Positions 145 to 47,713 of a stretch of 51,307 nt of DNA are shown in pieces. Each line of letters starts with the position of its first letter. Positions within the stretch are counted from its first letter, which is position 1. The notes beneath the pieces are model-generated. The model saw nothing but the letters and a program-made list of their open reading frames with translations. It made no database searches and was not told where the DNA came from. This stretch comes from a virus. Taxonomy: Duplodnaviria; Caudoviricetes. The translations under genes were made by a program, and so were the position numbers. The DNA is taken from positions 1-51,307 of IMG/VR virus record IMGVR_UViG_3300027987_000471; one strand, written 5' to 3'.

Positions 145-548
145 AGGATGGAGATCTTGAAGGTCTTTTAGAAGGAGAGGAGGCAGGCAAATTTCTTACG
201 CCAGGCGAAAACACAGTATCTGTTGAGCTTTGGCGTAGGCTGACAGAGGAAAATTATCCGCCAGCACCTTCCGGCCAAAAGCCTAAAAAGAAGAACAAAG
301 GGATCATCATTGCAATGCGCAAAGGCAATCTAGAGGTTGCTCGCGCAGGTGAGGCCTATCCTTTGAACTTGTCTTGGGCGTCTAGGCCGATTGCCGAGTT
401 TGAGGCTTTCCTTGCGCAGATCAAAACTATCGACAAGGTCGATAAAGTGAAAGAAGGTCTTGAGGGCCATACTAAGCTGCTGGCTTTGTGTGAGAAGAGA
501 ATCGATGCTATTTTAGATGAGGCCCAAAAGGTCGCTGTAGATGCTTAA
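36..548 (+). CDS. Hypothetical protein downstream of the major capsid gene (head-associated by synteny)
   Basis: ATG at 36 follows AAGGAG, so it is preferred over the GTG at 12. The stop overlaps the next ATG. Confidence 0.7.
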   Translation: MKVEFANEGSGENKIQEKPKTLVILNKTKAAYCLPSQDGDLEGLLEGEEAGKFLTPGENTVSVELWRRLTEENYPPAPSGQKPKKKNKGIIIAMRKGNLEVARAGEAYPLNLSWASRPIAEFEAFLAQIKTIDKVDKVKEGLEGHTKLLALCEKRIDAILDEAQKVAVDA

Positions 549-826
549 TGGCTGTGACCGTTACCACATTTTTGAGAGATTATCCGGAATTTTCGGATGC
601 CTCTCCTGATCTGATAAAGCGTAAAATTGCGTTAGCTTCTAAGTTTGTGAATGCGGCCGCTTTCGGTGATAGAGCGGACGACGCTATAAAGCTGAGAGCA
701 GCTCATTTTTTAGCAATGTCTCCGCCCGCCGAAGAAGCAGCATTAGAGGTAGGGAAAACTTGGTATATGGCTGAGTTTTCTCGTTTGGCCAAAATAGCAG
801 CGGCTAGAAAGCGGAGCACAACATGA
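548..826 (+). CDS. Head-tail adaptor (DUF4054-like)
   Basis: FLRDYPEFSD...AAHFLAM...TWYMAEF matches the recalled F..FPEF / AH / T.YG..F pattern; typical position after the capsid gene. Confidence 0.75.
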   Translation: MAVTVTTFLRDYPEFSDASPDLIKRKIALASKFVNAAAFGDRADDAIKLRAAHFLAMSPPAEEAALEVGKTWYMAEFSRLAKIAAARKRSTT

Positions 827-1266
827 ATTTAGGCCCTGGTTGGCGCTCTGCTTTTTTAGCGCTCCTTCGTAAATCTGAGGTAAAAATAACAATCGGTATT
901 CACGAGGGAGACGCTGACAGGACTTCTGAAGAAATAACTAATGTGGAGGCGGGTTTTTATCAGGAATTTGGCGATCCACAAAGGTCATTTTTACGTGAGC
1001 CTTTTGACCGCAAAAAAGCTAAGTATATAAAAGATGCTTCTCAGTGGTATGGCCAATCTTTTAGAGGCCTTAGAAATATACATTCAGTTCCTGATTTGAT
1101 CGGTACTGAAATAAGAGACGATTTGAAATCTAACATAAAGGACGGTATTTCGCCGGCGCTAGCTCCGTCCACTCAGAGGCAGCGCGATAAAAAAGGACAA
1201 GGATCTACTCCCCTTTTAGCTACTGGGCAACTAGTTCAGGCTATAGACTATCGAGTGGAGAAATGA
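823..1266 (+). CDS. Neck / virion morphogenesis protein
   Basis: QEFG..PQRSFLR and PALAPST..KKG..PLLATGQL motifs of HK97-gp10-like neck proteins. Confidence 0.75.
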   Translation: MNLGPGWRSAFLALLRKSEVKITIGIHEGDADRTSEEITNVEAGFYQEFGDPQRSFLREPFDRKKAKYIKDASQWYGQSFRGLRNIHSVPDLIGTEIRDDLKSNIKDGISPALAPSTQRQRDKKGQGSTPLLATGQLVQAIDYRVEK

Positions 1267-1275
1267 GAGGGCAAT

Positions 1276-1689
1276 ATGGCAACATTGTCTACGGATGCGC
1301 GAAACGCCGCGTGCGACGCGGTAACAGTACTATTGAACGCGGGAGCCGGCGCTAATCCTCAGCTAGTGATTAGAACGGCAGCTCAAGCGGCGCTTTGTAC
1401 TATCAACTTGAATGGCACCGATGCTGTTGGCGATGCAATAGCCGGAGTTGCTACTGTAGCGGCCCCTGCAGGAGAAGGATCTTGGGTTGGGTATCAAATA
1501 AATCCTTCGGCGAATGGGGACGCTGCGGACGCTGTAGTTGTAGATAAAGACGGCACTATAGTCTATACGCTTACTGTGGGCGTTACTGCCGGAGTTGATT
1601 TGCAGCTGGCAACATTGACGTTGCAAACCGCGGTTCCGATTACATTTAGCGCCGCGCCCACTATCACGCAGCTTGCGGCACCTGCATAA
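1276..1689 (+). CDS. Virion structural protein (collar or fibre associated)
   Basis: Ala/Thr/Val-rich beta protein with the N-terminal 'ARNAACDA' motif seen in phage structural clusters; lies in the neck region. Confidence 0.5.
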   Translation: MATLSTDARNAACDAVTVLLNAGAGANPQLVIRTAAQAALCTINLNGTDAVGDAIAGVATVAAPAGEGSWVGYQINPSANGDAADAVVVDKDGTIVYTLTVGVTAGVDLQLATLTLQTAVPITFSAAPTITQLAAPA

Positions 1690-1695
1690 AAATAA

Positions 1696-4236
1696 ATGGC
1701 GGACGTCTTTGGACATTTCGGCCTGGCTACAGGGAGTAATGACGGCACTTCTTGGGAAGATGCGTATCAAACACCTGCGGCTTTTACTGCCGGATTGTCT
1801 GCAGACGATGTGGGGTTAGTAAAAGAGCATGCAGGCTATACGATGGCCGCGGCTTTTACTGTCGCTGTTAATTGTGCGATTCATTTTGGTTTTGATTCCG
1901 CTTTAACCGGAACAAGTTATAGTCTTCCTGCGCGTACAGGCTATACTGTATTAAATGGTAATGCGGGGGCCTATAGAGCGTTAGATCTATCTGCGAACGT
2001 TACTATTAGTAGGCTAGAAGTTTATAATTATTCATTCAGCACGGCACCTTTAGGGAATTTCAGTGCGGGAGATATAACATTTGATACGTGTGTTTTCAGA
2101 AATTCTGCATCAACAGGATCTGATGATATTTCCGGTGTTAGAGTAGCGGATCCGGCAACTCTAACTTGCACTGATTGTGAATTTCATACTTTAACTGGCG
2201 GTTCATTCGGCGCTATTCGCAATGAATACGCAACTATGACGCTTAGCGGCTGCTATATTCATGATAATTCTGGATCATTCGGAGCCGCAGTTGCTATTTA
2301 TGCCGGTGGGACAGAGTTAGTCACGATTGAAGATTGTGTTATAGCGGATAATACCGGTACATTAGGCGGAGCAGTGTATGCTCTCGGCAGTGACGGGCCT
2401 GTAGTGCTTCGGCGTTGCTGGTTGACTGGAAACGCCGCTCCTTACGGCTCTGCTATCTACGTAGACAGCGGAGGGAACGCGTTAACGTTGAACAACTGCG
2501 TGGTAGCAGGGAATACTTGCAACTATTCCGGTGCTATTCGTTTTGATTCAGCATCCGGCTATTTGAATATAGTGCAATGTACAATTGCAGATAATAGCAC
2601 ATCAGATACCGATTGCGCCGGAGTTGAGACCAGTCAAGATCCTTATATAGCTGATTGTATTTTTTGGGGAAACACGGGAGCTGGCGGCGCAGGCTCTCAG
2701 ATACTGTCTTCAGATACGGCGGGAGTTGTTGATTACTGCGATGTAGACGGTTTAGCTGTTAATGGAATATCCGGAATAGCTACTATATCCAATTCGGTTG
2801 ATGCTGATCCTGTTTTTGTCGGTTCGGGTAACGACCCTTACGATTTAACGGGATCATCTCCAACATCGGTCACTGAAGGTGGATCAGTAAGCGTCACAGG
2901 CTATCAAGATTTTGATGTTTTGAATAATGATAGGCCCGCGTCCAACCCGTCTATTGGTGCGTATCAAGCCGCTGCTGCTTCTACTAATCCGTGTTCGATT
3001 GCTGTCACCGTGGCTTCTCAAAGTTGGACTGCGTCCGGCTCGCAAAGTAATACGGCAGCAATAGCTATTACTTCGGCGGCTCAATTATGGTTTGCTCAAG
3101 GCGCACAAGAGAATGAAGCGGCTATTTCTATAGAAGTTGGACCTCAAGCGTGGGACGCTGAAGGCTTTCAGGAAAATGAAGCTTCTATCGCTATAGAGGT
3201 AGCTGCCCAAGAATGGCTGGCGGTTGCCGCTGAAGCCGGCACAAATCCTTGTGTGGTAGCTATTCAGGCGCCTTGGCAAGCTTGGGCTTTATCAGGAGAG
3301 CAAGCGAATGCGGCTTCCTTGGAGGCAGAAGTACCTTGGCAGAGTTGGAGTGTTTCAGGTTCCCAAGAAAATCAAGCAGTTATATCTATAAATGTTGGTC
3401 CGCAGGCCTTCGCCGCAGAAGGAACGCAAAGCAACCAAGCCGCGCTTGATATTGTAGTGGCCGGTCAGAGCTGGGATGCTTATGGAAGTTCTCCCGTAAA
3501 CGCGTGCACTATAGATATCCAGGTTCCGTATCAAGATTGGTCGGCTACTGGCAGCCAAGAAAATGCGGCGATTATTTCTATCCGAACCGGGCATCAAATA
3601 TGGTCTGCGGTTGCAGGTGTGGCGCTCCCTGAAGATGCTTTTAACCCCACATTAGATGTAAAATTAGAAAAATTACGAGAAGGGCTAGAGTGGGCTTTCG
3701 GCTGCAGAGTGGTTTACGGAAGAACAGAAAAAATAAATGATTACAGGCCTTCGGGCGATGTTTGGGGCAGACTAGATCTTATGTTTGCCGGAGATGTAGA
3801 GGGATATGACGTAGAAATTAGAGATGTTGATATTAGTGCCTATGACGGTGTCACGCCGAGGCAAGAAGTAGCTATTCGGCAAACTCAGTTGCGTTTTCAA
3901 GTAACGCTTAGGTCTAGAGATCAACGTCCTAGTCATAGTGCTTGGGCAGCAGGCTTGAAAGGCATGTCTCGTGTGAAATTGCCGTGGTTTGTGGGTGAGT
4001 TTTTAGAGCCCTATAATTTGGCGATAGGCGAATTCAAGCAGCTCACAGACAGGCCCTTTTCGTTAGATAATCGTGTAGAAGATATGGCAGTTTTTGAACT
4101 TTTAGTTTACACTGTTATGGTGGAGTGTGATGAGGCAGCCCGGGGAGGTTGGATTGAGCGAGTTGAAGCTACTTCTGATCTAGGTTTGCCGGCAACACTT
4201 GAGTGGAATGAGGAGATCATTCCAGAGGAGGAATAA
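1696..4236 (+). CDS. Fusion protein: right-handed beta-helix + 21-aa repeat stalk + C-terminal tail terminator-like domain
   Basis: N-terminal GSNDGTSWEDAY, GGA(V/I) and ..C.I..N beta-helix repeats ending in SIGAYQ; ten 21-aa repeats; the last ~200 aa resemble a neck terminator and directly precede the sheath gene. Confidence 0.65.
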   Translation: MADVFGHFGLATGSNDGTSWEDAYQTPAAFTAGLSADDVGLVKEHAGYTMAAAFTVAVNCAIHFGFDSALTGTSYSLPARTGYTVLNGNAGAYRALDLSANVTISRLEVYNYSFSTAPLGNFSAGDITFDTCVFRNSASTGSDDISGVRVADPATLTCTDCEFHTLTGGSFGAIRNEYATMTLSGCYIHDNSGSFGAAVAIYAGGTELVTIEDCVIADNTGTLGGAVYALGSDGPVVLRRCWLTGNAAPYGSAIYVDSGGNALTLNNCVVAGNTCNYSGAIRFDSASGYLNIVQCTIADNSTSDTDCAGVETSQDPYIADCIFWGNTGAGGAGSQILSSDTAGVVDYCDVDGLAVNGISGIATISNSVDADPVFVGSGNDPYDLTGSSPTSVTEGGSVSVTGYQDFDVLNNDRPASNPSIGAYQAAAASTNPCSIAVTVASQSWTASGSQSNTAAIAITSAAQLWFAQGAQENEAAISIEVGPQAWDAEGFQENEASIAIEVAAQEWLAVAAEAGTNPCVVAIQAPWQAWALSGEQANAASLEAEVPWQSWSVSGSQENQAVISINVGPQAFAAEGTQSNQAALDIVVAGQSWDAYGSSPVNACTIDIQVPYQDWSATGSQENAAIISIRTGHQIWSAVAGVALPEDAFNPTLDVKLEKLREGLEWAFGCRVVYGRTEKINDYRPSGDVWGRLDLMFAGDVEGYDVEIRDVDISAYDGVTPRQEVAIRQTQLRFQVTLRSRDQRPSHSAWAAGLKGMSRVKLPWFVGEFLEPYNLAIGEFKQLTDRPFSLDNRVEDMAVFELLVYTVMVECDEAARGGWIERVEATSDLGLPATLEWNEEIIPEEE

Positions 4237-5582
4237 TGAGCCTCGAATCGGTTATAAGCGGTGTTATTACGTCGGGAACTTTAACAGGCACTACAAAATC
4301 TTTCAAAGTAGGCATGGTATTCGGGCACCACAACGCCTATTCTGATGCGGCGCGTGTTTATACTACCTCCACTGCGTTGAATCAGTTGATTACTGACGGC
4401 ATTCCGGCAACTAGTCCTATTTACAGAGCAGTGTCGTCTATGCTGTCCGCAACTACAGGGAAACCGGATAAAGTAGTTGTAGGTAAGCAAAACGGCACAT
4501 TCACTCAGGCCGGCTCTATACAGGTTATAGGCACGCCCTATACCGGTCAAGTTTATGCTTTCGTGGTCAGAAATCCTACTGGCACGCCTACCACAATTTC
4601 GCATACAGTAACTGCGGGACAGACTACCACAGATATAGCTACGGCGCTTAATGCTTTGCTTACTGTGGTGTCCGGTATAACTTCTACTTCGGCTACAGAT
4701 ACTATCAGTTGGGAATCTGATGCCGATAATGTAATGTGGACGTTCGAATCTATGAGCAAAACTCAGTTTCAGTTTTTGGATGCTACACCGGCACCCGTCG
4801 ACATTACTTTGGCAACAGATTTGGCGGCGATCAGAGCTGCAAATCGAACGTGGTATGCTTTTACTTGGGCGGGGCCGACAAGCGCCGCTATAAATTTGGC
4901 CAATGGGAATTGGGCTGAAACGCAAGAGCTTATGTATTGGGGAACTTCATACAACAACAATGAAGAAGATCCTGCCTCCACTACATCGGCATCTTATCTG
5001 TGTGAAGCAGCTAACCTATTTCGAACAGTTATCGCTTTTAGTGGTGACCAAACTAAAAACTTGGCCGCTGCTCTTATCGGGAAAATACTGCCGTATGATC
5101 CGGGCAGTGTTTCTGCTGAATTTAAGACTGTTGCAGTAACCGCGGACACAATAAGTGGAAATGCTGAAACGTCTTTTGTGCAGAATAACTGCCTCTATTA
5201 CGCTGCGCTTGAGGGAGGTTTTGACTGGGTTCAAAATTCCAAGACTTCGGGCGGAGAGTGGATAGACGTTATTATCTTCAGAGATTGGTTGTTCGCCAGA
5301 TTGAGAGAAGCTGTTGCTACTTTGTTCAGCAATGCGGCTAAAATCCCGTACACCCGCGCCGGAGAAGAGATGATCGCCAAGGAATTCCGTGCGGTGCTGA
5401 AACTGGGAGTAACTAGAGGAGGCTTGGACGATACCGAAGAAGCTCCCTCTGTTACTTATCCTGAAATATCCGATATTTTGGAGGCCGATAGGATAGATAG
5501 GATTCTGCCTGATTTGGCGTTCAGCGGCAGGCTTGCAGGCGCTATTCATGCGCTTAGATTTACCGGCATTTTGCGGGTGTAA
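4236..5582 (+). CDS. Tail sheath protein (DUF3383-like)
   Basis: 448 aa with PGS..FKT, GEWIDVIIFRDWL, KIPYT..G and LAGAIH motifs. Confidence 0.92.
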   Translation: MSLESVISGVITSGTLTGTTKSFKVGMVFGHHNAYSDAARVYTTSTALNQLITDGIPATSPIYRAVSSMLSATTGKPDKVVVGKQNGTFTQAGSIQVIGTPYTGQVYAFVVRNPTGTPTTISHTVTAGQTTTDIATALNALLTVVSGITSTSATDTISWESDADNVMWTFESMSKTQFQFLDATPAPVDITLATDLAAIRAANRTWYAFTWAGPTSAAINLANGNWAETQELMYWGTSYNNNEEDPASTTSASYLCEAANLFRTVIAFSGDQTKNLAAALIGKILPYDPGSVSAEFKTVAVTADTISGNAETSFVQNNCLYYAALEGGFDWVQNSKTSGGEWIDVIIFRDWLFARLREAVATLFSNAAKIPYTRAGEEMIAKEFRAVLKLGVTRGGLDDTEEAPSVTYPEISDILEADRIDRILPDLAFSGRLAGAIHALRFTGILRV

Positions 5583-5591
5583 GGAGCAGTC

Positions 5592-6041
5592 ATGAGCTTT
5601 GAACCGAATGTTAAAGTTGTTAACCCTTCTGATGTGGATGTGCTTTGGGGGCATATTCAGATTCGGGGTTTTTCAAAAGGCACTTACATAAAAATAACGC
5701 CTGCCGCCGACGACACTACAGACGAAAACGGTGTAGACGGAGAGGTTGTTATTTCCATGACCAACGATCAGCGAGCCGATTTTGAGTTTACGTTGATGAA
5801 ATCGGCTAAAGCTAATTTGGAGCTGTCTTTGGCTCGAAATGAAGGCATTCAAGCGCGGCGCGTCCTAATTATGCCTCTTGTGGTCAGAGACGGCAACGGG
5901 AATGCTCTCTATGAGGCAGACAACGCTTGGATCAAGGCGCGACCGGAGAACGAAATATCTTCCGAAGTGACTTCCTACAAATGGACGTTACGCGTTGCAC
6001 ATCTCAATAGCATTGAGGGAGATTTGCTGTTCCCTCAATAG
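5592..6041 (+). CDS. Tail tube protein (DUF3277-like)
   Basis: 149 aa after the sheath gene; P.DV, IRGF..G, G.DGE, S.AN..LS, D.NG and AWI..RP motifs. Confidence 0.88.
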   Translation: MSFEPNVKVVNPSDVDVLWGHIQIRGFSKGTYIKITPAADDTTDENGVDGEVVISMTNDQRADFEFTLMKSAKANLELSLARNEGIQARRVLIMPLVVRDGNGNALYEADNAWIKARPENEISSEVTSYKWTLRVAHLNSIEGDLLFPQ

Positions 6042-6065
6042 CAGTGATCTGAAAGGAGCAAAAAG

Positions 6066-6677
6066 ATGATCACACCTGTAACTACGGTAATTGACGGCGA
6101 TACTTATGAGTTTATGCCCATGGCAGCCACCGAAGCTCGAAAGTGGTTGATGATTCTGCAACAGACTTTTGGGCCTTCTGTGGCTGAAGCTTTTTCCGGC
6201 ATAAAAGACGCCGCAATTCCGGATGGAGCGCTCGAGCTGGATACTGGAGACCCCAAAATGATCGTGGCGATGCTTGGGCCTATTGCGGGATCTATTTCTG
6301 GTCTGGTTAGAGGTTTTTCTTCGTCTCTAAACGCTGCCGGCTATGAGGCGCTTGTAGAGGCGTTTCTATCCAGGACTTGGGTAGAGACAGATTCGGGAGG
6401 AAAACTTGAGCTGAAGAAAGGCTATAGAGAGCTGAATTTTTACAACAAATTAGCGTTGGAGGCACGCATTTTATTGTGGTGCCTAAAGGAGCAATACTCT
6501 GATTTTTTCGGATACTTAGAGACGGCAAGAGTTTGGCTGGAAGCAGCAAAAGGAACGGCGGCGTCTCTATTGAAATCCCCATCTCAATCGACTGGTGGTT
6601 CTTCAGAATCGCAGCATCGAGCCGCTTCAACGTTAGCCTCATCGAAATTCAACGTGAATGGTCCCTTGCCGACATAG
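6066..6677 (+). CDS. Tail assembly chaperone (G product)
   Basis: Lies between tube and tape measure genes; contains the YSDFF motif on a slippery site. Confidence 0.8.
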   Translation: MITPVTTVIDGDTYEFMPMAATEARKWLMILQQTFGPSVAEAFSGIKDAAIPDGALELDTGDPKMIVAMLGPIAGSISGLVRGFSSSLNAAGYEALVEAFLSRTWVETDSGGKLELKKGYRELNFYNKLALEARILLWCLKEQYSDFFGYLETARVWLEAAKGTAASLLKSPSQSTGGSSESQHRAASTLASSKFNVNGPLPT

Positions 6678-8563: not shown

Positions 8564-9196
8564 ATGCCCTACGAAAATATAAAAGCTCAGCGCGGCGCTT
8601 CTCCTGTCGTCACAATAGGCGATGTTAGAGTATCGGCTTCCTTGAGTGAGAGTCACGAGCTTACTTCTGATGTGACCTCATCTCCCGTAGAAGGCAAGAT
8701 TGATACGAACGATCATATCTACAAAAAGCCTAGAGTAGTATCTATCGACGGTAAAGTGTCTGATGTAGTTATAGAGAATGGTTATCCGGGAAAATCGCTA
8801 GTAGAGTCTTTCAGAGTAGGTAATGAAAATAATCCGGCTATAGAGGCGTGGCATACTGTCAAAAGTTATTGGGATGAATCAAAGATAATAGATATTGAAA
8901 CTTCTTTAGAGACGCTGCCTTCTATGGCTATAGTTAAATTTTCGGTAACAAGAGGGCCGGGAGAATCTACTACTGTACTTCGTTTTTCTGTGACTGCTAA
9001 GCAACTTAATGTTGTTGCTACGCAGACGACAGCGGCGCTTACTCTGCCCGAGCCCAAAAGCAACACAGTAAAAGGCAAAGCTGAAGGCAAAGGGAAAAAG
9101 CCGAATAAGAACGCGAATGAGGCGCAAGATACTAAAGCTAAACAGTCTACTCTGTCCAGATTGGCTGGAGGCGTAACCGGGTTTTTGGGTTTTTGA
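8564..9196 (+). CDS. Baseplate / tail tube initiator (Dit-like)
   Basis: ESH....VT..PVEG....DH motif; directly after the tape measure gene. Confidence 0.75.
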   Translation: MPYENIKAQRGASPVVTIGDVRVSASLSESHELTSDVTSSPVEGKIDTNDHIYKKPRVVSIDGKVSDVVIENGYPGKSLVESFRVGNENNPAIEAWHTVKSYWDESKIIDIETSLETLPSMAIVKFSVTRGPGESTTVLRFSVTAKQLNVVATQTTAALTLPEPKSNTVKGKAEGKGKKPNKNANEAQDTKAKQSTLSRLAGGVTGFLGF

Positions 9197-9197
9197 T

Positions 9198-9545
9198 ATG
9201 ATAGAGATAGTTCAAACTGAAACTGACGGCTCCAGGCACTACGACGTAGAGAAGAATTTAGATGGAGTTAGTTTCATACTTCGTTTTATTTGGAACGAAT
9301 ATGATCAACATTGGTTTTTATCCGTATTAACAGAAGATGAGGAAGAGATACAGGGAGCGCAGTCTTATCGTCTTGTCAACGGGTGCTATCCGTTGAATCA
9401 ATCTAGGGACCCCAAGCGCCCTGAGGGAGAACTTTATCTTTTGGCGCAGTCTACGGCAGATCCTGTCCTATTGACATTGGGAATATCTTCTATTCTATTG
9501 TATATACCTAGAGAAGATATTTTAGCACTGAGAGCGCAGCTATGA
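9198..9545 (+). CDS. Small baseplate protein
   Basis: LDG..F.LRF.WN....W motif and synteny. Confidence 0.65.
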   Translation: MIEIVQTETDGSRHYDVEKNLDGVSFILRFIWNEYDQHWFLSVLTEDEEEIQGAQSYRLVNGCYPLNQSRDPKRPEGELYLLAQSTADPVLLTLGISSILLYIPREDILALRAQL

Positions 9546-10363
9546 GTTTAATTTTCGGCAGAAAATACGAACTTATAGTAGACGACATGTTGTTTACTGA
9601 TCTAGATTTAGGCTTTACTGTAGTAAGGACTTTAAAAGATACCTCTCCCAATTCGCTGGAGCTTACCATAACAAATGTTTCAGAAGGCCGAAGGCTGTCT
9701 ATGGTTCTAAAAAAATCGCCTGCAGTGCAGCTCAGTGCCGGTTACGAAGAGAATTTTGGAGTGATTTTTCTAGGGGAAGCCAGGGAGATAACGCCTACTA
9801 AGCAAAATACAGAGTGGATAATGTCTATATCTTCAGGAGACGGCGAAGACTCCATGGCAAAATCGAGAGTCAATAAGTCATTTGCTCCCGGTGTTTCGTA
9901 TGAGACAGTAATTCTTGAAGTTGCCAAATCTATGGGAGGTATAGGTTTGGGAAATTTAGAAAAGCTTTTGAAGAAAGGGGCTTTGCCCACAAAAAGAAAA
10001 AAATTTGTGAAAGGTGTCACTGTAAGTGGTCCTTCTAAAAAAGAGCTTCGGCGTTTAATGTTGGCCTCAGGCCTAGAGTGGAGCATCCAAAACAAGCAGT
10101 TTCAAGTTCTAGAGGCCAACAAAACTTTAAGCTCTGTAGCTTATGTTTTGTCAAAAGATACAGGCCTTGTAGGATCGCCTGTGTCTGACAACAGAGGGAA
10201 TCTAGAATTTATTTGCAATATGAATCCTCAAATAGTTCCAGGTAGACAGGTAGAAATTTCATCTAAATACGTGAAAGGCTTTTATAGATGCGTTAGAGTT
10301 GAGTACAGAGGCACTTATCCCGATGGTGAGTGGAGAAACGTAGTAGAGGCGACCAGAATATGA
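9542..10363 (+). CDS. Baseplate hub protein
   Basis: PN...L.I.N, L.AGY...G.IF.G, WSIQN, TGLVGSP and NP.I.PG motifs. Confidence 0.85.
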   Translation: MSLIFGRKYELIVDDMLFTDLDLGFTVVRTLKDTSPNSLELTITNVSEGRRLSMVLKKSPAVQLSAGYEENFGVIFLGEAREITPTKQNTEWIMSISSGDGEDSMAKSRVNKSFAPGVSYETVILEVAKSMGGIGLGNLEKLLKKGALPTKRKKFVKGVTVSGPSKKELRRLMLASGLEWSIQNKQFQVLEANKTLSSVAYVLSKDTGLVGSPVSDNRGNLEFICNMNPQIVPGRQVEISSKYVKGFYRCVRVEYRGTYPDGEWRNVVEATRI

Positions 10364-28259: not shown

Positions 28260-28295
28260 ATAAAAAACGACATGGAAAAAATTATTTTTTAGCGC

Positions 28296-28324
28296 TTGAC
28301 AGTAATCTAAATCAGATTTAAATA
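28296..28324 (+). promoter_or_regulatory. Rightward early promoter with palindromic operator
   Basis: TTGACA-17-TAAATA then AGGAGG; TAAATC-A-GATTTA at 28308-28320. Confidence 0.8.
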
Positions 28325-28344
28325 CCTCTATAGGAGGTAGCAAA

Positions 28345-28728
28345 ATGCATATAAATGGAGTAGAAATTAGACTAAATCCGAAATTCAAGGCGAGAGACAT
28401 GTTCTACGCGCTAAATCTCTCAATAGAGGCGCTGCAAGACGCTGTCAGTGAGGCAACAGGAAAAACCGGTATAGACAGCAGCGAAATAAAAATAGAGCGT
28501 TGCGAAGACCGTAGCGATTCATGGATGGAATACCTCGGAGTCAGATTGTCTAGCGACGATGAAAACCTTGTTGCTAGAACTATCAATTTTTTAGAAAAAT
28601 ACGTCAAAAAAGCTTCTGAAAAATTCTATCGAAAATTTCCGTCTGATGGCAGGCTCCGTTATGGCGTCCATAAGGTCGATCCGGAAAACGGAATTTTGCT
28701 CTATCAGAGCTTTTTAATTGACGACTAG
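28345..28728 (+). CDS. Hypothetical early protein
   Basis: Promoter and AGGAGG directly upstream. Confidence 0.75.
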   Translation: MHINGVEIRLNPKFKARDMFYALNLSIEALQDAVSEATGKTGIDSSEIKIERCEDRSDSWMEYLGVRLSSDDENLVARTINFLEKYVKKASEKFYRKFPSDGRLRYGVHKVDPENGILLYQSFLIDD

Positions 28729-28730
28729 AC

Positions 28731-28759
28731 TTGACAGCTATCTAAATCTGATTTAAATA
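28731..28759 (+). promoter_or_regulatory. Early promoter with palindromic operator
   Basis: TTGACA-17-TAAATA; TAAATC-T-GATTTA at 28743-28755; 28 bp identical to the reverse complement of 47686-47713. Confidence 0.8.
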
Positions 28760-28779
28760 ACCTAACAGGAGGTAACAAA

Positions 28780-32184: not shown

Positions 32185-34596
32185 ATGGATGTCTATCTTT
32201 TCGACAATATAAACTCGCCGCCCGCCGAAAAAGTAAGCGGAAATCCATCTGAAATACTTGATATTTTTGGGGACGAAGAGAAGTGCCCATCTGTTCTATG
32301 CAAAACAGAAGCGGACAAGCTCCGCGGTGCCGGTTTTGTTATAGCCAAGTACAAAGAGGGAAGTAGGACTAGAAAAATATCAGATTTAGCGCTGGATTCT
32401 TCTGTTCAAATACTGGTCTTGGATATAGATAATATCAACTTCGATCAGTTAGCAGAAGCTTGGCCGATTCTGTCGTCTTACGATTCTGTAGTCTATTCCA
32501 CATGGAAGCACACTCCAGACAATCCTAGAATTCGTTATATGGTGGCCTTGGATAAACCTGTACCTAACACCAACAAGAAACATTTTGAGGCAGTCTATCA
32601 AGCCGTGTCTCGGGCGCTAAAACTGCCCTACGATAAGCAAGCCAGCGATAGAGTGCGCTTCTTCCTCGGGCCTCAGCATCGAATAGAAGGAACACAAGAA
32701 CGGTATAGATTCAAAGGTCCACCTTTTCCGATATCGAAGATAGACGTAGCCGCAAGCGCCGCGGCTACTGAGAGAGACGAAACAGAGGCAGATGATGAAT
32801 TCCAAGTTACTGGAGACCGCCCAAAAAAGCAAGAACTAAAAAATCTGGCAAAAAAACTTCGGGATTCTCCTGTGCCGGCCTACAAAAAAATAGCAACTGC
32901 CGTCGAAGCTATATTGAGGGGCGAAAGCTACGCTCCGAAGGGTAGCCGGCACGCTACTACCCTAAAAGTAACTATGGAGTTGGTCAAAAAGTGGCCGCAA
33001 TTGGACGCTGAATGGTTTGCCGCGGAATACCTAGAGGCGGAATGTTGGCCCGAAATGTGGGCCGGCGAAGAAGCCGCTGCGATGCCTGATTGGTTGGGCT
33101 GCGTAAACGGCGCTCGAGAGAGAATAGCCGAATCTGAGGCCATGGCGGCTACTTTATCCAAGATGTTGGATCGATCCACTAAGGATGTCCCATTTTCCGC
33201 TTTAGGGGACAGAATAGGTAAGCTTATTCTAGCTCACGGCAACAGCTTCTATGTCTGGGATTTAGAGAAAAAAACATACACTGGGCCTTGGCCTGGAATA
33301 ACGCTACCAGTAGTTGTCCGAAATCAGCTAGGAAAAATAGAAGGTCTCAAGGAATTCAAAGAGACTAAAAGAGGTCGAACGATGAAGTCGCCTACCGAGC
33401 TGTGTCACGAATACGGAACCACGATCAAAGAAGTAATATTCTACCCAAATGATCCGCCTACAGTTCAAGACGAAGATACTCTATATCTGAAAGCTTATGA
33501 TTGGATTGCTTGGGAGCCTAAATTCCATCAGATAGCTGAGGAGCTTCTGATAGCCGTGGCGGGCCTTAGAGCCGAAGATCTTTTCGCCTATCTGTCTCAA
33601 TTTAGAAATCTGAATCAGCCGCTGCCGGCGCTAACTCTAGTCGGTGGGCCTGGTGTTTGGAAATCCCGAATCATGGAAATACTAGGCCGTTTCTGGACAG
33701 ACAAGGAGGTCAGTCACACAAATCGCGCCGAACATGCTCTTGCGAAACACAACACATGCCTCCTGAAAAACCCTACAATATGGTCTGATGAGCAACTAGT
33801 AAAGACTCCGATGGGTAAAGACCAACCAGAACTTTACAGGCATAGCATAACATCTCGAGTGCAGTTTATAGAACCGAAGGGGCTACCGATTGTCGCTTTG
33901 AAAACCGCGGCTCGGCATCTTGTTTCGGTAAACAGAGATAGTCACGTCTTCAGCTCTGAAGTCGATGCCGACTCTATTGTGGCGACAATGGAGCGCTTTT
34001 TATTGATTCACGTGAACGAGCCCGCAGTGGCAGCTTTTGAGGCGAAATGGGCAGGAACGGACGAACTTAATGTATTACGTGAGGGATCGTCTCTTTTAGA
34101 ATACATCAGATTTATTGAGGAAAACACCAACTTCAAGAGCGAAGGGCGTCTATTTGTTGCTCCTAGAGTAGATATGTCGGTATTGATGCGCAGCCGTTTC
34201 CGAAACGATATGTTGAATTATTTATGGCAGATCGCCCTAGACGCTATCGATTTCGAAACGCGCACATCGGTTCCTGGCCACATAGATAGGCTGCCTCTTG
34301 TAGTGGACCACTTAGGAAAGCTGCGCATATCTCCCGGGCGCTTACACAAGCTTTGGGCTACCTCTAAGGTTGTCGCCGGCTCGGGTCTGAAAAGGCCTAC
34401 CACGCAGCACATAGGACACCTGCTGACGCAAGCAGGATTCAAAAAGCACCGAAACGAACGCGCGACCAAGGCACCTACCGGTGGCTGGGAAGTAAATCTA
34501 AACACTTTCAAAGACTTTATGGAAGTTTCTGAAGTGATGAGCTGGGATGATTTTGTCTCTGCATGTTTAAAGGTATTCGGAAAGGAGCCAAAATGA
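32185..34596 (+). CDS. Primase-helicase (AEP-like N-terminus, P-loop NTPase C-terminus)
   Basis: VLDID and YSTWKH....PR.R motifs; Walker A-like GGPGVWKS, Walker B IWSDE, IEPKG and ERF. Confidence 0.82.
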   Translation: MDVYLFDNINSPPAEKVSGNPSEILDIFGDEEKCPSVLCKTEADKLRGAGFVIAKYKEGSRTRKISDLALDSSVQILVLDIDNINFDQLAEAWPILSSYDSVVYSTWKHTPDNPRIRYMVALDKPVPNTNKKHFEAVYQAVSRALKLPYDKQASDRVRFFLGPQHRIEGTQERYRFKGPPFPISKIDVAASAAATERDETEADDEFQVTGDRPKKQELKNLAKKLRDSPVPAYKKIATAVEAILRGESYAPKGSRHATTLKVTMELVKKWPQLDAEWFAAEYLEAECWPEMWAGEEAAAMPDWLGCVNGARERIAESEAMAATLSKMLDRSTKDVPFSALGDRIGKLILAHGNSFYVWDLEKKTYTGPWPGITLPVVVRNQLGKIEGLKEFKETKRGRTMKSPTELCHEYGTTIKEVIFYPNDPPTVQDEDTLYLKAYDWIAWEPKFHQIAEELLIAVAGLRAEDLFAYLSQFRNLNQPLPALTLVGGPGVWKSRIMEILGRFWTDKEVSHTNRAEHALAKHNTCLLKNPTIWSDEQLVKTPMGKDQPELYRHSITSRVQFIEPKGLPIVALKTAARHLVSVNRDSHVFSSEVDADSIVATMERFLLIHVNEPAVAAFEAKWAGTDELNVLREGSSLLEYIRFIEENTNFKSEGRLFVAPRVDMSVLMRSRFRNDMLNYLWQIALDAIDFETRTSVPGHIDRLPLVVDHLGKLRISPGRLHKLWATSKVVAGSGLKRPTTQHIGHLLTQAGFKKHRNERATKAPTGGWEVNLNTFKDFMEVSEVMSWDDFVSACLKVFGKEPK

Positions 34597-34919
34597 GCAA
34601 TTTAGATTTTTATCACGCCTACCTAGAAGGCCAAAAAGCTGCCTCTTTCTTGGCAGAACGCGCATCACAAGCAGGGCTGTTGTTGAGAGAGCTAGAGAGT
34701 TGTCTGCCAAACAACATAAATTTAAACAGAATTAATTCGACTACTTGGAGCATAAGGTTACGCTCTAAAGAAGGAAAACTTTTAGGCTTCGCGACCGCCA
34801 GAATATACGATAAAACTTATACGCTTCAGTATCTAGAAGACATAAAGACAGGATCAAGCGTTGGTGATTTCAGAGATCTTTTACTAGAAATGCTAGAAAA
34901 CCCAAAAATGCACTACTAG
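34593..34919 (+). CDS. Hypothetical protein
   Basis: AAGGAG RBS and ATGA coupling at 34593. Confidence 0.65.
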   Translation: MSNLDFYHAYLEGQKAASFLAERASQAGLLLRELESCLPNNINLNRINSTTWSIRLRSKEGKLLGFATARIYDKTYTLQYLEDIKTGSSVGDFRDLLLEMLENPKMHY

Positions 34920-34932
34920 GAGCCGAAGTAAC

Positions 34933-35103
34933 ATGGACGAATATAAATGCGAAAACTGCAAAGAGCAGATGCTTTTGCTGGATGAAGAAGACTGGATATT
35001 ATGGTGCCCAAACTGCGGCGCTTTAGCAGGCATTATAGGCCAAGTTTTCGTGACAAAAATACCTGAAAAATCTAAACCAGATTTAGACAAAAATAAAAAA
35101 TAA
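34933..35103 (+). CDS. 56-aa Zn-ribbon protein (not in the ORF track)
   Basis: AGGAG RBS; CENC...WCPNCG. Confidence 0.6.
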   Translation: MDEYKCENCKEQMLLLDEEDWILWCPNCGALAGIIGQVFVTKIPEKSKPDLDKNKK

Positions 35104-35985
35104 AATTTTACAACGACACTGCACTGCCTCTCTAGAAATCTGAAATCATTAACAAATAAATTGAGGGCCTATTCAAGCTATTGTAATTATTACGTTAAAC
35201 ATATAATGTAATTGTTACAGTATTTATGCGCACACAAACGTTGCATATATGCTATTTTTTGTTATGATATACCACATATGCAATGTGTAAATTTTACGAA
35301 TTATTTTAATTTTATGCTCTATATTATTCGCCAAAAAATACAAAAAACACCTGCCTCATATGAATTTTGTAAATTTATTATTTTTTATGACTTATTTGTT
35401 TTTCTATATGTACTGTAATAATTACAATAATATACCAAATACAATAAAATCAAGCACTTGAATAGGCCCGCAATTTATTTTCTAATGATTTCAGATTTTT
35501 ACAATTTTTATTTCGCCTATAAAAAATGTATCGGGCCTATTAATTAATATCTGGTTTAGATCAATAGGCCCAATTTATTTTCTATAGATATCAGCAAGTT
35601 AGCCTGCTATTTTGCAACATGCACTAAATGCCAAATATACAATTAGGCCTAGATAAAAACTAACGATTACAATGTGTTACATTCGATACGGGCCTATTGG
35701 CCTATTGCTAATAATTCGTATGAGGAAAATTATAAAAATTTTATATAATAAAAAAAGATCACGCAAAATCGCATGTGTGTTTTTTTCCTGAAGGGGAGTA
35801 TATAGCAATAGGCCAATAGGCCCTAATCATATCTATGTAGCCGTTATTGTTAATTTAATTCAGGGCCGATAGGGTTTGGCTCAATAGGCCTCAATAGGCC
35901 AACACTACGGAATTATTATGTTTTCATTTACTTCAATAGGCCAACTACTTGAAATTATTATATTTGAGCTTTTTGGAGTGAAAGT
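35104..35985. other. AT-rich non-coding region with nested inverted repeats; putative replication origin
   Basis: Longest gene-free stretch, downstream of the primase-helicase; about a dozen AATAGGCC/GGCCTATT copies; 42-bp and 21-bp inverted repeats. Confidence 0.65.
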
Positions 35986-35987
35986 TT

Positions 35988-36015
35988 TTGCATTTAAATC
36001 GAGTTGTGTTAAACT
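35988..36015 (+). promoter_or_regulatory. Putative promoter giving a leaderless ASCH mRNA
   Basis: TTGCAT-16-TAAACT with a TG extension; ATG 7 nt downstream and no SD. Confidence 0.5.
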
Positions 36016-36022
36016 GGTCGGT

Positions 36023-36526
36023 ATGAAGGTCTTGTCAATCAGAAATCCTGAGGCCTATTTGGTCGCGTTCGGCCTGAAAGACGTCGAAAATCGGACATGG
36101 TCTACAGATTATCGAGGAACCGTCCAAATCCACTGTAGCGGTCAACAGTCGTTTGTGTGGCCAGATTCGGACTGGTTGCCGGACGAGGTAAAGAGGATCG
36201 TTCAGGCGGCGATAGATGACGGTACACCGTACGGAGAGCTGCATCGGTACGCTAGAGGCTACGAGGATATGTGTCGGCACGCAGAAGCGGTTCTAGGCGT
36301 CTCAGAAGAGCCAGGAGCTGGTTTTGTAGATGTGCTGAAAAGAGCGTCCATTTTGCCTTTTGTAAATAAAGCAGTCGTAGGACAGTTCGATCTGGTTGAT
36401 ATTGTTAGAGATTCTATGTCTCCGTGGGCACAGGAAGGCTGCTATCATTGGCTAGTAGAAAATCCAGTAGCTTATGATGAGCCTGAGATAGGAGTAAAAG
36501 GCAAACTGCGGTTGTGGAACCGTTAA
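36023..36526 (+). CDS. ASCH domain protein
   Basis: MKVLSIRNPEA.LV..G.KDVENRTW.T.YRG...IH and C-terminal KGKLRLW; start reassigned to 36023. Confidence 0.9.
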   Translation: MKVLSIRNPEAYLVAFGLKDVENRTWSTDYRGTVQIHCSGQQSFVWPDSDWLPDEVKRIVQAAIDDGTPYGELHRYARGYEDMCRHAEAVLGVSEEPGAGFVDVLKRASILPFVNKAVVGQFDLVDIVRDSMSPWAQEGCYHWLVENPVAYDEPEIGVKGKLRLWNR

Positions 36527-36536
36527 GGAGCAGACA
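36461..36536 (+). repeat. 76-bp direct repeat, copy 1 (ASCH 3' end + RBS)
   Basis: 72/76 identical to 37082-37157. Confidence 0.95.
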
Positions 36537-36541
36537 CGAAA

Positions 36542-37147
36542 ATGACCGGATTGGTTAATAGAATGATAACAGCTCCGTATCCAATAAAGCACGCAGTTCG
36601 TTTTGTTGAGCAGACTCATCGCAGGCTTAAACATGCCCACCACCGTATGTGGGCAATCAGTCTATGGGTAGATGGGCAACTTCGGGGAGTGGCGTTGGTA
36701 GGCGCACCAAAAGCTAGGAAATTGGGTGTAGAACAGAAGGACAGACCATATCCGCCCGCTTATGACCGGCTGGAAGTAGTGAGAGTTGCTGTAGAGGAAG
36801 GAGTTCCTAATGGGTGTTCGATGCTGTACGGGGCATGTGCCCGCGCATCTCGCGCCATGGGCGTGTTAGACTTGCTCACTTACACAGATGAGGATGAGCC
36901 AGGAACAAGTCTTCGAGCTGCTGGTTGGATAGAAGATGATGGGCTTTTTGGAGGAGGTCAGGCCGCGCGACCGGCACGTCCACGCAGGATACGTACAGAG
37001 CAAGAAGCACAAATGCGTAAGAGATGGTGGGCTCCGTGGTCTCAGTCTGTCAAACAAAAAGATTTAACTTCCAAAGGAGGCAATCCAGTAGCTTATGATG
37101 AGCCTGAGATAGGCGTGAAAGGTAAACTGCGGTTATGGAACCGTTAA
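36542..37147 (+). CDS. XF1762-family / Mom-like GNAT-fold protein (candidate DNA base-modifying enzyme)
   Basis: FV...HR, GVA.VG.P.AR, LEV.RV, N.CSMLYGA..R...AMG, TYT...E.GTSLRAAGW and RKRW motifs. Confidence 0.75.
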   Translation: MTGLVNRMITAPYPIKHAVRFVEQTHRRLKHAHHRMWAISLWVDGQLRGVALVGAPKARKLGVEQKDRPYPPAYDRLEVVRVAVEEGVPNGCSMLYGACARASRAMGVLDLLTYTDEDEPGTSLRAAGWIEDDGLFGGGQAARPARPRRIRTEQEAQMRKRWWAPWSQSVKQKDLTSKGGNPVAYDEPEIGVKGKLRLWNR

Positions 37148-37157
37148 GGAGCAGACA
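37082..37157 (+). repeat. 76-bp direct repeat, copy 2
   Basis: Encodes the same 21 aa (NPVAYDEPEIGVKGKLRLWNR), stop and RBS as copy 1. Confidence 0.95.
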
Positions 37158-37486
37158 TGAAAATGGTTAGTGTACTTGTTTTGTTGATTTCGATTTTGGG
37201 TTGTGGCGGCGAGCCGTTGCAGTTGCCTAAAGTATCAATTCATACGTGCGATGAGGTAAAAGTGCATCTGCAGGAGATTGGCTGTATGGATTTTGAGCTG
37301 TGTGCTTCGTTGGTTGATGATGCAGTCGAGAAGTACATAACCTCTAGGCTGCCCGAGAATGTTCCGTTTGAGGCGTTTTGTGATATTGCGCTATCGTCCG
37401 GGTTGCTGCCGGTTGACTGTGTTATGCAGGCGGCGAAACCGGAAGAGGTTGTGGATTGTGGCAAATTGATGGCGCCCAAAAAATAA
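37157..37486 (+). CDS. Cys-rich lipoprotein
   Basis: MKMVSVLVLLISILG-C lipobox and six further Cys. Confidence 0.7.
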   Translation: MKMVSVLVLLISILGCGGEPLQLPKVSIHTCDEVKVHLQEIGCMDFELCASLVDDAVEKYITSRLPENVPFEAFCDIALSSGLLPVDCVMQAAKPEEVVDCGKLMAPKK

Positions 37487-37544
37487 TTTTGTGTTATTAT
37501 TAGTATGCTGAAGCGCTAAAACATCAGCAGAAAGGAGGCCCGTT

Positions 37545-37711: not shown

Positions 37712-38371
37712 ATGCAGATTCTCCCACCCAAACAAGCCGCAGTGCTTAAAGAAGAGCCTGCGGCTGTCCTTTTTTCCGCTGGAAAAGATAGTATCGCGGC
37801 AGCCGATATTCTTCATAGAGAGAATCTGCTGCCAAAAGATTTTATATTTTTATATTTTGTTCCGGGTTTGTCTTTTGTGGAGTCTATTCTAAGACATTAC
37901 GAGAAAAAATGGAAAGTAAATATAATACGCAGGCCTTCGGATGAAGCTCTGAGTTTATTTTCTGCTATGCGCAACGTTCGTAAAAAGCAATATACAGAGT
38001 CGGATGCTATGGCGCTTATTAGAGCTGAGTTTGATAATGTTTGGCTAATATCGGGAGCAAAAAAGAAAGACAGCTTAGCTCGGCGCGGCATGCTGTCAAA
38101 GCTGGTTGATGGAGTAGATTCTAAGCGTAAGACTATTTACCCGATAATTGAGTGGTCGGATAGACAAGTTAATGCTTATTGCAAAAAGAACAGACTTAAG
38201 CTTCCTATAACATACGATATGGGCCTTAAAAATTCTATGTGGGTCCCGAATACCGAAGGCTTGGTTTGGATAAAATCAAATTTTCCGAAAGATTATGATA
38301 GAATAGTTAGATTTTTTCCTAATCTGGAAAGTCTAGTTTTCAAGTATAAGAGACAGTATGCCCGCGAATAA
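37712..38371 (+). CDS. PAPS-reductase-family (PP-loop) protein
   Basis: FSAGKDS PP-loop; G.KK.DS..RR and YPI..WSD..V..Y motifs. Confidence 0.88.
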   Translation: MQILPPKQAAVLKEEPAAVLFSAGKDSIAAADILHRENLLPKDFIFLYFVPGLSFVESILRHYEKKWKVNIIRRPSDEALSLFSAMRNVRKKQYTESDAMALIRAEFDNVWLISGAKKKDSLARRGMLSKLVDGVDSKRKTIYPIIEWSDRQVNAYCKKNRLKLPITYDMGLKNSMWVPNTEGLVWIKSNFPKDYDRIVRFFPNLESLVFKYKRQYARE

Positions 38372-39134
38372 ATACGAATCGTTCGAGCTTATTGTTATTT
38401 CTAGGCGCAAAATAAATTTAGCCGAATATAACCCTAGGCTGATTTCTGAAGATGCTAAGAAGAGACTAAGGCACTTCATCAAATCGAAACAGTTTGGTCT
38501 TCTGTCGCCTCTTGTGTGGAACGAGGTTACAGGAAACCTTGTTGCCGGGCATCAACGGATACAGATTTTGGATTCTTTGCATGGGCATCTTGATTATGAG
38601 CTTACTGTATCTAAAGTTCATCTTTCGGAAGAGGACGAAATCAAAGCGAATGTTTTTCTGAATAATTCATCGGCGCAAGGGCAGTGGGATTATGATGTTT
38701 TGACTCAGCTCGCAGATTTAGGCGATTTTGATTTTGAAAAAGACTTTGGTTTTTCTTCAGATGATGTTGAGGCTATATTTGGGCCTCCTGAAGAGGAATT
38801 AGAGGCGCTTGCGGCGGAAGGGATGCGGCAGCTGGAGGAGGCGATACCGTTGCCGGCTATGGCTGATAGCGCTGAATCTGAAGAGAATCTGAGTGCTTTA
38901 TCGGAAGAAGATGCTGAGAAGTTCAGGCAGCTTAAAAAAGAAGCTCGGGAGAAAGCGAAACTTGACAATTTAAATGGAGATGGGTATAGATTGAGTAAGG
39001 CCGATGTGACAGTGACAATAGTATTTAAAGATTCGGAAACGAAAAGAGGTTTTATGCGTCTGTTGTCGCGTCCCGAAAATGATCGAAACATAACTGCCGA
39101 GCATCTAATTGAGTGCATTGAGAATGGATTTTAA
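38358..39134 (+). CDS. ParB/Srx N-terminal domain protein
   Basis: A.YNPR, FG...P.VWN..TGN.V.GHQR and N....G.WD motifs; acidic linker and no HTH. Confidence 0.88.
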   Translation: MPANKYESFELIVISRRKINLAEYNPRLISEDAKKRLRHFIKSKQFGLLSPLVWNEVTGNLVAGHQRIQILDSLHGHLDYELTVSKVHLSEEDEIKANVFLNNSSAQGQWDYDVLTQLADLGDFDFEKDFGFSSDDVEAIFGPPEEELEALAAEGMRQLEEAIPLPAMADSAESEENLSALSEEDAEKFRQLKKEAREKAKLDNLNGDGYRLSKADVTVTIVFKDSETKRGFMRLLSRPENDRNITAEHLIECIENGF

Positions 39135-47463: not shown

Positions 47464-47670
47464 TTACCTCCAACCGTTTGCCAAAGCCACCGAGTAGGCC
47501 AAATCTTGCTGGTAGTGAGCTTCATCCTCTTTTTCAGTCCGCCAACCGCCACCTCGATTTACGCGACCACAGGTCAAGCATAGTCGGCTGCCTTCATCAG
47601 TGCTCGGACTGCCGTTAAAAATTGTTGTGTCCGTGCTGCCGCATTTGCATCTAGTTTTCGTCATTGTCAT
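47464..47670 (-). CDS. Zn-ribbon-like early protein
   Basis: Promoter plus AGGAGG; CKCGS...CLTCG. Confidence 0.6.
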   Translation of the reverse strand: MTMTKTRCKCGSTDTTIFNGSPSTDEGSRLCLTCGRVNRGGGWRTEKEDEAHYQQDLAYSVALANGWR

Positions 47671-47684
47671 TACCTCCTGAAAGC

Positions 47685-47713
47685 AATTTAAATCAGATTT
47701 AGATAGCTGTCAA
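47685..47713 (-). promoter_or_regulatory. Early promoter with palindromic operator
   Basis: TTGACA-17-TAAATT; TAAATC-A-GATTTA at 47689-47701. Confidence 0.8.

Follow-up and report, generated by a model that had tools for sequence, protein, structure and literature searches.

An XF1762/Mom-like phage gene bracketed by two copies of a gene junction: a probable insertion completed by duplicated sequence

The virus record IMGVR_UViG_3300027987_000471 (Duplodnaviria; Caudoviricetes), a metagenome assembly, is a complete contig of 51,307 bp with terminal repeats, and the whole of this stretch is called here the window. Between the gene of an ASCH-like protein and a putative lipoprotein gene the window carries a Mom-like gene of the XF1762 family, which is bracketed by two direct copies of an 84-nt sequence, and the ASCH-like and Mom-like proteins, unrelated to each other, end in the same 21 residues. 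We consider it likely that the XF1762/Mom-like gene was inserted as a 537-bp piece devoid of a stop codon, that the junction between the two neighbouring genes was duplicated in the same event, and that the tail common to both proteins is a by-product of it. The open reading frames (ORFs) and sequence elements concerned are the following.

36023..36526, + strand: ASCH-like gene, 167 amino acids (aa), assigned by phrog_3193, by a profile match to TRIP4/ASC-1 chains and by its fold
36461..36544, + strand: repeat copy 1, with the last 21 ASCH codons (36461-36523), TAA (36524-36526), AAGGAG (36525-36530) and ACG-AAA-ATG (36536-36544)
36542..37147, + strand: XF1762/Mom-like GNAT ORF, 201 aa, with seven borrowed or leader codons, a core (8-167), a linker (168-180) and a tail apparently derived from ASCH (181-201)
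36545..37081, + strand: insert-specific DNA, 537 nt, an 18-nt foreign leader followed by the Mom-like core, which extends from the ATG at 36563, probably its native start, to the variable C-terminal linker
37082..37165, + strand: repeat copy 2, with the ASCH-tail codons that form the Mom-like C-terminus (37082-37144), TAA (37145-37147), AAGGAG (37146-37151) and ATG-AAA-ATG (37157-37165)
37157..37486, + strand: putative lipoprotein gene, 109 aa, with a signal-like N-terminus ending ILGC and no family match

The two copies stand 621 nt apart, start to start, and are identical at 79 of the 84 positions, with sharp edges at which the likeness ends abruptly on both sides. Chance alone would give about 8e-32 pairs of this kind in 51.3 kb, and besides the 144-nt terminal overlap this is the sole long internal direct repeat of the genome. 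Each copy contains, in this order, 21 codons, a TAA, an AAGGAG overlapping that stop, a 5-nt spacer and A(C/T)G-AAA-ATG. The terminal ATG of copy 1 is the start codon of the Mom-like ORF, and the ATG-AAA-ATG of copy 2 constitutes codons 1-3 of the lipoprotein gene. A preliminary description of this DNA had reported a direct repeat giving two unrelated proteins one C-terminus, and this is borne out by self-comparison of the sequence and by the ORF translations, in which the last 21 residues of ORFs 36023-36526 and 36542-37147 agree at 21 of 21 positions. The length of 76 bp given there was too short, as the repeat continues through the stop, the AAGGAG and the ATG-AAA-ATG to reach 84 nt. All four of the coding differences that it listed are present, each of them a synonymous third-position change (repeat positions 33, 36, 42 and 54), but a fifth was overlooked at repeat position 77, where 36537 is C and 37158 is T, so that the lipoprotein ATG reads ACG in copy 1. 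The first 32 nt of the repeat are identical and form its longest perfect run, all the differences falling within the right-hand 52 nt. No RNA or DNA hairpin was found in the repeat, which folds no better than shuffled sequences (z -0.54 and +0.45).

The only close relative in the viral and metagenome collections was L002, a record of 50,476 bp rated 100% complete. Its identities to the window are 73% for the primase, 66% for the ASCH-like protein, 54% for the lipoprotein (over 92 aa, with the ORF directly after ASCH), 64% for a PAPS-reductase-like protein and 75% for a ParB-like protein. At the L002 junction AAGGAG and then the lipoprotein start come after the ASCH stop, the Mom-like gene is absent, and the whole record (G001) matches the Mom-like query only through the ASCH tail; the sequence that is repeated on both sides of the insert in the window is single-copy in L002. 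The start ATG of L002 aligns with the ATG at 37157 in copy 2, and hence the repeat includes the first three lipoprotein codons. The equivalent of that ATG in copy 1 is now ACG, the third codon being left as the Mom-like start. Compared with the L002 junction the copies are identical at 54 and 56 of 83 positions (65-67%), whereas they are 94% identical to each other, which would make the duplication much younger than the split from L002, unless gene conversion homogenised the copies. In the other nine closest ASCH loci (L003-L011) a PAPS-reductase-like gene lies ~100-320 nt after the ASCH gene, and none of them has a Mom-like gene there. Since the PAPS-reductase-like gene directly follows ASCH in these nine loci, this spot appears to have received two insertions in succession, the lipoprotein gene first and the Mom-like gene after it.

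Searches beyond this group gave no match for the DNA of 35900-37500 in 50,697 phage records, and no match for the exact junction 22-mer in the viral contigs. A metagenome scan with the ASCH-like protein returned the L002 contig as its best match and a 43% identical protein as the next. Among cultured phages the best identities were 42% for the Mom-like protein, 30% over the full length for the ASCH-like protein and 40% for the terminase.

Judged from its conservation and from the predicted structure, the 21-residue tail is the conserved end of the ASCH fold and native to the ASCH-like protein. For this protein a long ORF beginning at 35918 was trimmed to the Met that matches the L002 start (MRVLSIRNP). 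Over residues 1-166 it matches phrog_3193 (E 3.5e-24), and a profile built from 20 homologues finds the solved ASCH chains of TRIP4/ASC-1 at E 6.9e-13 to 3.1e-11 and TTHA0113 at 1e-5, the match to solved chains spanning the N-terminal 40 residues. The AF2 model, with a predicted local distance difference test score (pLDDT) of 84.3, has ASCH entries (TRIP4, EOLA1/CXorf40, TTHA0113 and ZmASCH) at ranks 1-17 among the Foldseek matches listed, the best at 2.4e-6 with a TMq of ~0.5. Profile and fold thus uphold the ASCH label that had been proposed, although no Pfam family was matched at E <= 0.01. All 19 of the 19 homologues aligned (33-66% identical) keep the tail motif; P154 and G160 do not vary among them, L162 is conserved in at least 90%, and in the model the tail contributes to strands 141-156 and 164-166 at a pLDDT of ~90.

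On the Mom-like side the tail is missing from all 19 aligned homologues, 18 of which end 7-17 residues past the invariant RWWAPWS; the homologue P0004 carries 10 further unrelated residues at its end and no tail. The non-self matches listed for the protein (119 of 119) span 57-90% of its length, among the best 150 of 1,759 representatives no match extends past residue 182, and the tail alone, compared with 262 fetched homologues, gave nothing better than E 2.9. The RWWAPWS motif, present in 117 of the 262, is followed by a median of 12 residues, against 35 in the window. One longer Mom-like protein (415 aa) has its Mom-like part at the C-terminal end and possesses neither the tail nor an ASCH part nor a Pfam family. 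Whether XF1762 homologues end before the tail was a question raised in the preliminary description, and in all those examined they do; being a conserved ASCH-fold end that every Mom-like homologue examined lacks, the tail does not conform to the shared tag envisaged there. At the other end of the protein, 12 of the 19 aligned homologues start at a Met matching window codon 8, which argues that the first seven residues are not native, and the other seven have longer or differently called N-termini. Residues 175-200 of the Mom-like model have a pLDDT below 50. The AAAGGAGG noticed earlier just ahead of copy 2 was located at 37073-37080 (+), within the Mom-like linker codons; no useful in-frame ORF follows it, an ATG 14 nt downstream opening 5 codons, and it is probably a relic of the ribosome-binding site of the donor's next gene. 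A stretch PW(A/S)Q, found in both proteins 14-17 residues before the tail, was considered as the true joint and rejected: in each protein it is a native conserved motif of its own family, and from the stretch to the repeat the sequences of the two genes are unrelated.

The assignment of the inserted gene to the XF1762 family, made earlier from the letters, is confirmed by NCBIfam NF045478, where the protein scores 103.8 bits (cut-off 50) with residues 11-162 on profile positions 3-142 of 143, and the PHROG match, to phrog_1384 (E 7e-23), likewise makes it Mom-like. With the Pfam family Mom (PF25680) it scores 23 bits, under the threshold of 27.1 (E 7e-5, residues 11-130), and several close homologues bear a precomputed PF25680 label. 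The predicted model has a GNAT fold, matching at least 250 PDB chains at E <= 0.001, the listed ones all GNATs, with Z 11.5-13.8 over 127-159 residues. Mom of phage Mu (8bv8) heads the structural matches, with a Foldseek E of 1e-7 where the entry ranked second has 1.5e-5, and VIA-align gives it Z 13.8 with a root-mean-square deviation of 3.5 over 159 aligned residues, which by the rule of that tool is a tie with the next GNAT, at 13.0.

According to the sections on the enzyme in PMC13219725, Mu Mom modifies DNA at the N6 of adenine with glycine taken from Gly-tRNA, shields that DNA against restriction, and has R111, S124, D149 and R151 as essential residues. The window protein resembles it in being a small phage enzyme of GNAT fold in a DNA-modification neighbourhood, and differs from it in the low identity (12-15%), in the sub-threshold Pfam Mom score and in having no Com-like translational activator. 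Mu Mom has a helix-turn-helix-like insertion (~175-209) needed for activity. In the model of the window protein a single helix, 168-177, follows the last strand, which may or may not correspond to it. The hhalign comparison of the homologue alignment with Mu Mom covered 17 columns at a non-significant E of 0.64, and a local hidden Markov model of 245 homologues aligned only with Mu 26-76 (5.1 bits, weak), placing H26 of the window on H58 of Mu. Neither comparison aligned the catalytic residues; the invariant R81, S93 and D118 would reproduce the spacing of the Mu residues. By analogy to the Mu enzyme, the Mom-like enzyme would modify the phage DNA against host restriction. No mention of the XF1762 family was found in the literature searched. 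The best viral locus with a Mom-like gene, 76% identical, lies in an unrelated high-GC phage of 98.9 kb, and a genome scan with the Mom-like alignment gave 11 loci (best 52% identical) and named neither a host nor a donor.

We propose a model in which the ancestor resembled L002, with an ASCH-like gene followed by a lipoprotein gene that began 5 nt after an AAGGAG overlapping the ASCH stop. A foreign fragment of 537 bp would have been joined to it by two staggered joints, non-homologous or mediated by microhomology; the simplest setting for them would be a pair of genome copies that were together during replication or co-infection. The point of exit would lie after lipoprotein codon 3 and the re-entry point 84 nt upstream, at ASCH codon 147; exit and re-entry being 84 nt apart, the 84-nt junction stands on both sides of the insert. 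In the sequence the ASCH gene is whole and the lipoprotein gene retains its own ribosome-binding site and start, while the 537-nt insert has no stop codon of its own and, beyond the repeat, is unlike its flanks. The left joint is in frame with the duplicated start, its leader containing no in-frame stop, and seven residues precede the native Mom-like Met. The right joint is also in frame, and through it the Mom-like ORF reads across the 21 duplicated ASCH codons to the duplicated TAA. In either of the other frames a stop would come after 2 or 4 codons, so that the tail needs no purpose in order to exist, and it would travel on the Mom-like enzyme as a passenger, not as a tag. A promoter in the AT-rich gap ahead of ASCH would drive the three genes together, and selection would have retained this recombinant since all three ORFs stay expressible.

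Several points weigh against an insertion of this kind. Donor and joints cannot be reconstructed, and no closer DNA context of a Mom-like gene was found. In GC content at third codon positions (GC3) the Mom-like gene ranks 24th of 51 and is thus typical of the genome, its value at first positions being the highest of the 51. This implies either that the event is not recent or that the donor was of similar composition, and in a neutral tail of some age one would expect more decay. That the tail has a low pLDDT in the model of the Mom-like protein counts weakly, because the alignment contains no homologue for that part. Finally, if copy 1 was constrained and copy 2 neutral, four synonymous changes out of four have a P of 0.020-0.038, according to the transition bias, in copies that have diverged by ~0.27 per synonymous site; with four events only, this pattern mildly disfavours a purely neutral tail. 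It fits three readings: selection on the tail, origin of copy 2 in a diverged sister phage, or changes that fell mostly in the ASCH copy. On the last of these, L002, a distant outgroup, matches one of the copies at four of the five variable sites (three coding and one start-codon), and three of these four agree with copy 2, so most changes may have occurred in the constrained ASCH copy, where they are necessarily synonymous.

Selection acting to keep the tail on the Mom-like enzyme, by docking on the ASCH-like protein or competing with it, by stabilising the enzyme, or by coupling ribosomes to the lipoprotein start, is unlikely. It would account for the synonymous-only differences (P 0.02-0.04 under a neutral copy 2) and for an ORF that remained intact over 21 extra codons despite the synonymous divergence. 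However, the tail belongs to the folded ASCH core and is not a module, no Mom-like homologue examined has it, the L002 comparison leaves room for changes in the ASCH copy, and just four events enter the count. Nor does a general ASCH-Mom gene linkage, a candidate that was dropped, come to its aid, since an ASCH-like ORF occurs in 1 of 92 Mom-like loci and a Mom-like ORF in 0 of 160 ASCH loci. The descent of copy 2 from the ASCH gene of a diverged sister phage, through an exchange within the repeat or the integration of an excised circle, is a minor but real possibility, and a form of the diverged-relative alternative named in the preliminary description. It would explain the synonymous-only differences without any function of the tail, and the identity of the first 32 nt, with all differences to their right, is a pattern that a crossover inside the repeat could leave; the relevant sections of PMC3029335 and PMC2839356 describe phages that exchange DNA at short repeats bounding genes. 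Nevertheless, the next relative is only 66% identical in ASCH, and the clustering lacks significance, the P for five differences all falling outside the first 32 of 84 positions being ~0.09.

The preliminary description had also pointed out that recombination between the copies removes exactly the 621-bp unit, which is correct and would restore the L002 arrangement. The switchable cassette that it suggested, with a 621-bp unit that would be lost, regained or amplified at appreciable rates, possibly through mini-circles, in a population mixed for DNA modification, is in our judgement quite improbable. The geometry permits clean excision to the L002-like state, the phage encodes exonucleases and a RuvC-like resolvase, and mini-circles of repeat-flanked ORFs are documented in T4-type phages in the part of PMC2839356 devoted to them. 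But the genome has only two copies of the repeat, with a longest perfect run of 32 nt and, as said, neither a stem-loop nor any other structure, the 34 ORFs scanned include none recognised as encoding a single-strand annealing protein, and excision would be a one-way loss unless the circle re-enters. An ancestral Mom-like gene, older than the L002 split and lost in L002 by recombination between the repeats, is very unlikely. Such a loss would leave no scar and the L002 state alone is therefore inconclusive, yet without continual gene conversion the copies should match the divergence of the lineages instead of being far more alike to each other than to L002, and L003-L011 have no Mom-like gene after ASCH either.

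Least of all do we believe in an assembly artefact, in which two strains or phages were misjoined through a common short sequence. The record is a metagenome assembly, and the public read runs compared with it gave no reads across the repeat: one run contains 0.13 of the sampled words, and this run and two others of the same study, compared at 80% likeness, gave short and diverged fragments only, without this phage and with none across either repeat copy, the sole joint being 38259/38606; no RNA run with the phage was listed. But the artefact would require near-identical 84 nt at both ends of a foreign gene and both joints in frame, the GC3 of the Mom-like gene matches the genome, and the copies, differing at five positions, are not a collapsed or repeated path of the assembly graph.

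Extra genes of comparable position have long been discussed as morons. In lambdoid phages Juhala, Hendrix and colleagues are said to have described morons as extra genes, likely beneficial to phage or host, that lie between genes adjacent in relatives, and classical morons carry their own promoter and terminator. The Mom-like gene of the window also lies between neighbours that are adjacent in the relative, but no promoter or terminator of its own was seen at 35779-37458 (+), and its expression would depend on the duplicated start region.

Closer parallels come from mycobacteriophages. Gene 68 of Island3, as described in the section of Hatfull et al. 2011 (PMC3029335) that deals with it, is absent from the sister phage Brujita, and the end of the upstream gene 67 recurs in it as ~50 bp of DNA and as 18 residues at its C-terminus, which its authors read as recombination at the repeat, with gain or loss. 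In both cases an extra ORF absent from a relative has its C-terminus in common with the upstream gene and is bracketed by a direct repeat. Compared with what that section gives for Island3, the repeat of the window is longer, at 84 nt, and adds the stop, the ribosome-binding site and three downstream codons; the insert borrows both of its ends and is of a recognisable family, XF1762/Mom-like, and the copies are five changes apart. In LRRHood, in the same source, a 1.35-kb insertion stands between 29-bp direct repeats at the extreme 3' end of a gene and the relatives are single-copy. The window resembles it in the direct repeats at a 3' gene end that bracket extra DNA and in the single copy of its relative, whereas the LRRHood insertion has several genes and a shorter repeat, and the passage on it reports no shared protein tail. 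The PeSL mobile regulatory cassettes of T4-type phages, in the corresponding part of Arbiol et al. 2010 (PMC2839356), are single ORFs between ~100-bp direct repeats, where recombination deletes the ORF and can yield a re-insertable mini-circle. The window has likewise a single ORF between direct repeats, but the PeSL is described there as a multi-copy intergenic promoter with a stem-loop, while the repeat of the window occurs twice, is mostly coding and has no significant fold.

Self-comparison of 238 fetched loci (1.42 Mb) found dispersed direct repeats of at least 40 nt in 18 of them. In one, L124, a ~44-nt repeat (9852-9895 and 10116-10158) runs from the end of ORF 9140-9871 into the start of the ORF after it. 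The two copies enclose an ORF of 87 aa, whose first three residues are those of the downstream ORF and which has five residues near its end in common with the upstream ORF; by its layout L124 is of the same junction-duplication design as the window. Another, L166 (positions 1-6351 of a 78-kb viral contig), contains five copies of a 159-nt element with a stem-loop sub-repeat that bracket gene cassettes, and the unrelated ORFs 314-688, 3004-3486 and 4323-4667 each finish within a copy, with identical last seven residues. Of these, 3004-3486 is Mom-like (67% identical) and cut off after about residue 117, and an ASCH-like ORF lies at 5719-6297. From this arrangement of elements the L166 locus does look PeSL-like.

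A speculative extension, which we regard as unlikely, is that the junction is more than a scar. It would then be an 84-nt portable linker for a 621-bp circle moving between related phages, or its ASCH beta-hairpin would be selected to tie the enzyme to the ASCH-like DNA-binding protein or to the PAPS-reductase/ParB-like module, or both. The result would be a system of DNA modification that is chimeric and varies within the population.

The genes downstream of the duplicated junction place the inserted gene in a wider setting. The signal-like N-terminus of the putative lipoprotein ends in what we take to be a lipobox, and two further genes follow it.

37712..38371, + strand: PAPS-reductase-like gene, assigned by PF01507 (E 6.5e-7) and by PHROG
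38358..39134, + strand: ParB-like gene, assigned by PHROG and by synteny in L002-L011

The PHROG matches in this region are phrog_424, phrog_9353 and phrog_620, and the sole PADLOC match is that of the ParB-like protein to a methyltransferase model. The order ASCH-like, PAPS-reductase-like, ParB-like recurs in all ten closest ASCH loci and forms a conserved three-gene module, which from its gene content may be a nucleic-acid modification unit and presumably resembles the pairing of IbrA and IbrB. A scan of the + strand from 35779 to 37458, by consensus only, found neither promoter-like nor terminator-like sites, and so the ASCH-like, Mom-like and lipoprotein genes are probably expressed as one transcript.

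Some observations concern other parts of the genome. The sequence CAATAGGCC occurs 9 times in the window, against 0.4 expected, and eight of the copies, on both strands, lie at 35562-35942 in an AT-rich gap of ~900 bp just upstream of the ASCH-like gene. A cluster of it is also found upstream of the ASCH gene in L002 (3461-3897), and to judge by this recurrence the cluster is an iteron- or operator-like array common to the two phages. A 39-nt motif is present in three copies (28289-28327, 28724-28762 and 47670-47708) and combines a TTGACA-like hexamer with a palindrome (ATCTAAATC.GATTTAAAT); each copy is probably a phage promoter combined with an operator. At 34563-35103, in the interval from the primase gene to the AT-rich gap, the window has two small ORFs (118 and 56 aa) which have no family match and no counterpart of at least 60 aa at that place in L002, a further insertion or deletion between the phages.

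The event in the window is an already-known kind of phage gene acquisition, of which it is an ordinary but clean example. It indicates how a phage can make a fragment with neither promoter nor stop expressible in one step, the duplication of a junction supplying the ribosome-binding site, the start and the stop. For annotation it carries the warning that, where adjacent but unrelated genes of a phage encode identical protein tails, these can be scars of recombination and are not necessarily shared motifs. The cargo, related in fold to the recently explained tRNA-dependent Mom of Mu and placed in an operon with other genes of nucleic-acid-modification type, would be a sensible choice for testing anti-restriction DNA modification. 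Were the tail or the repeat functional, the window would provide a case of neofunctionalisation of a recombination scar.

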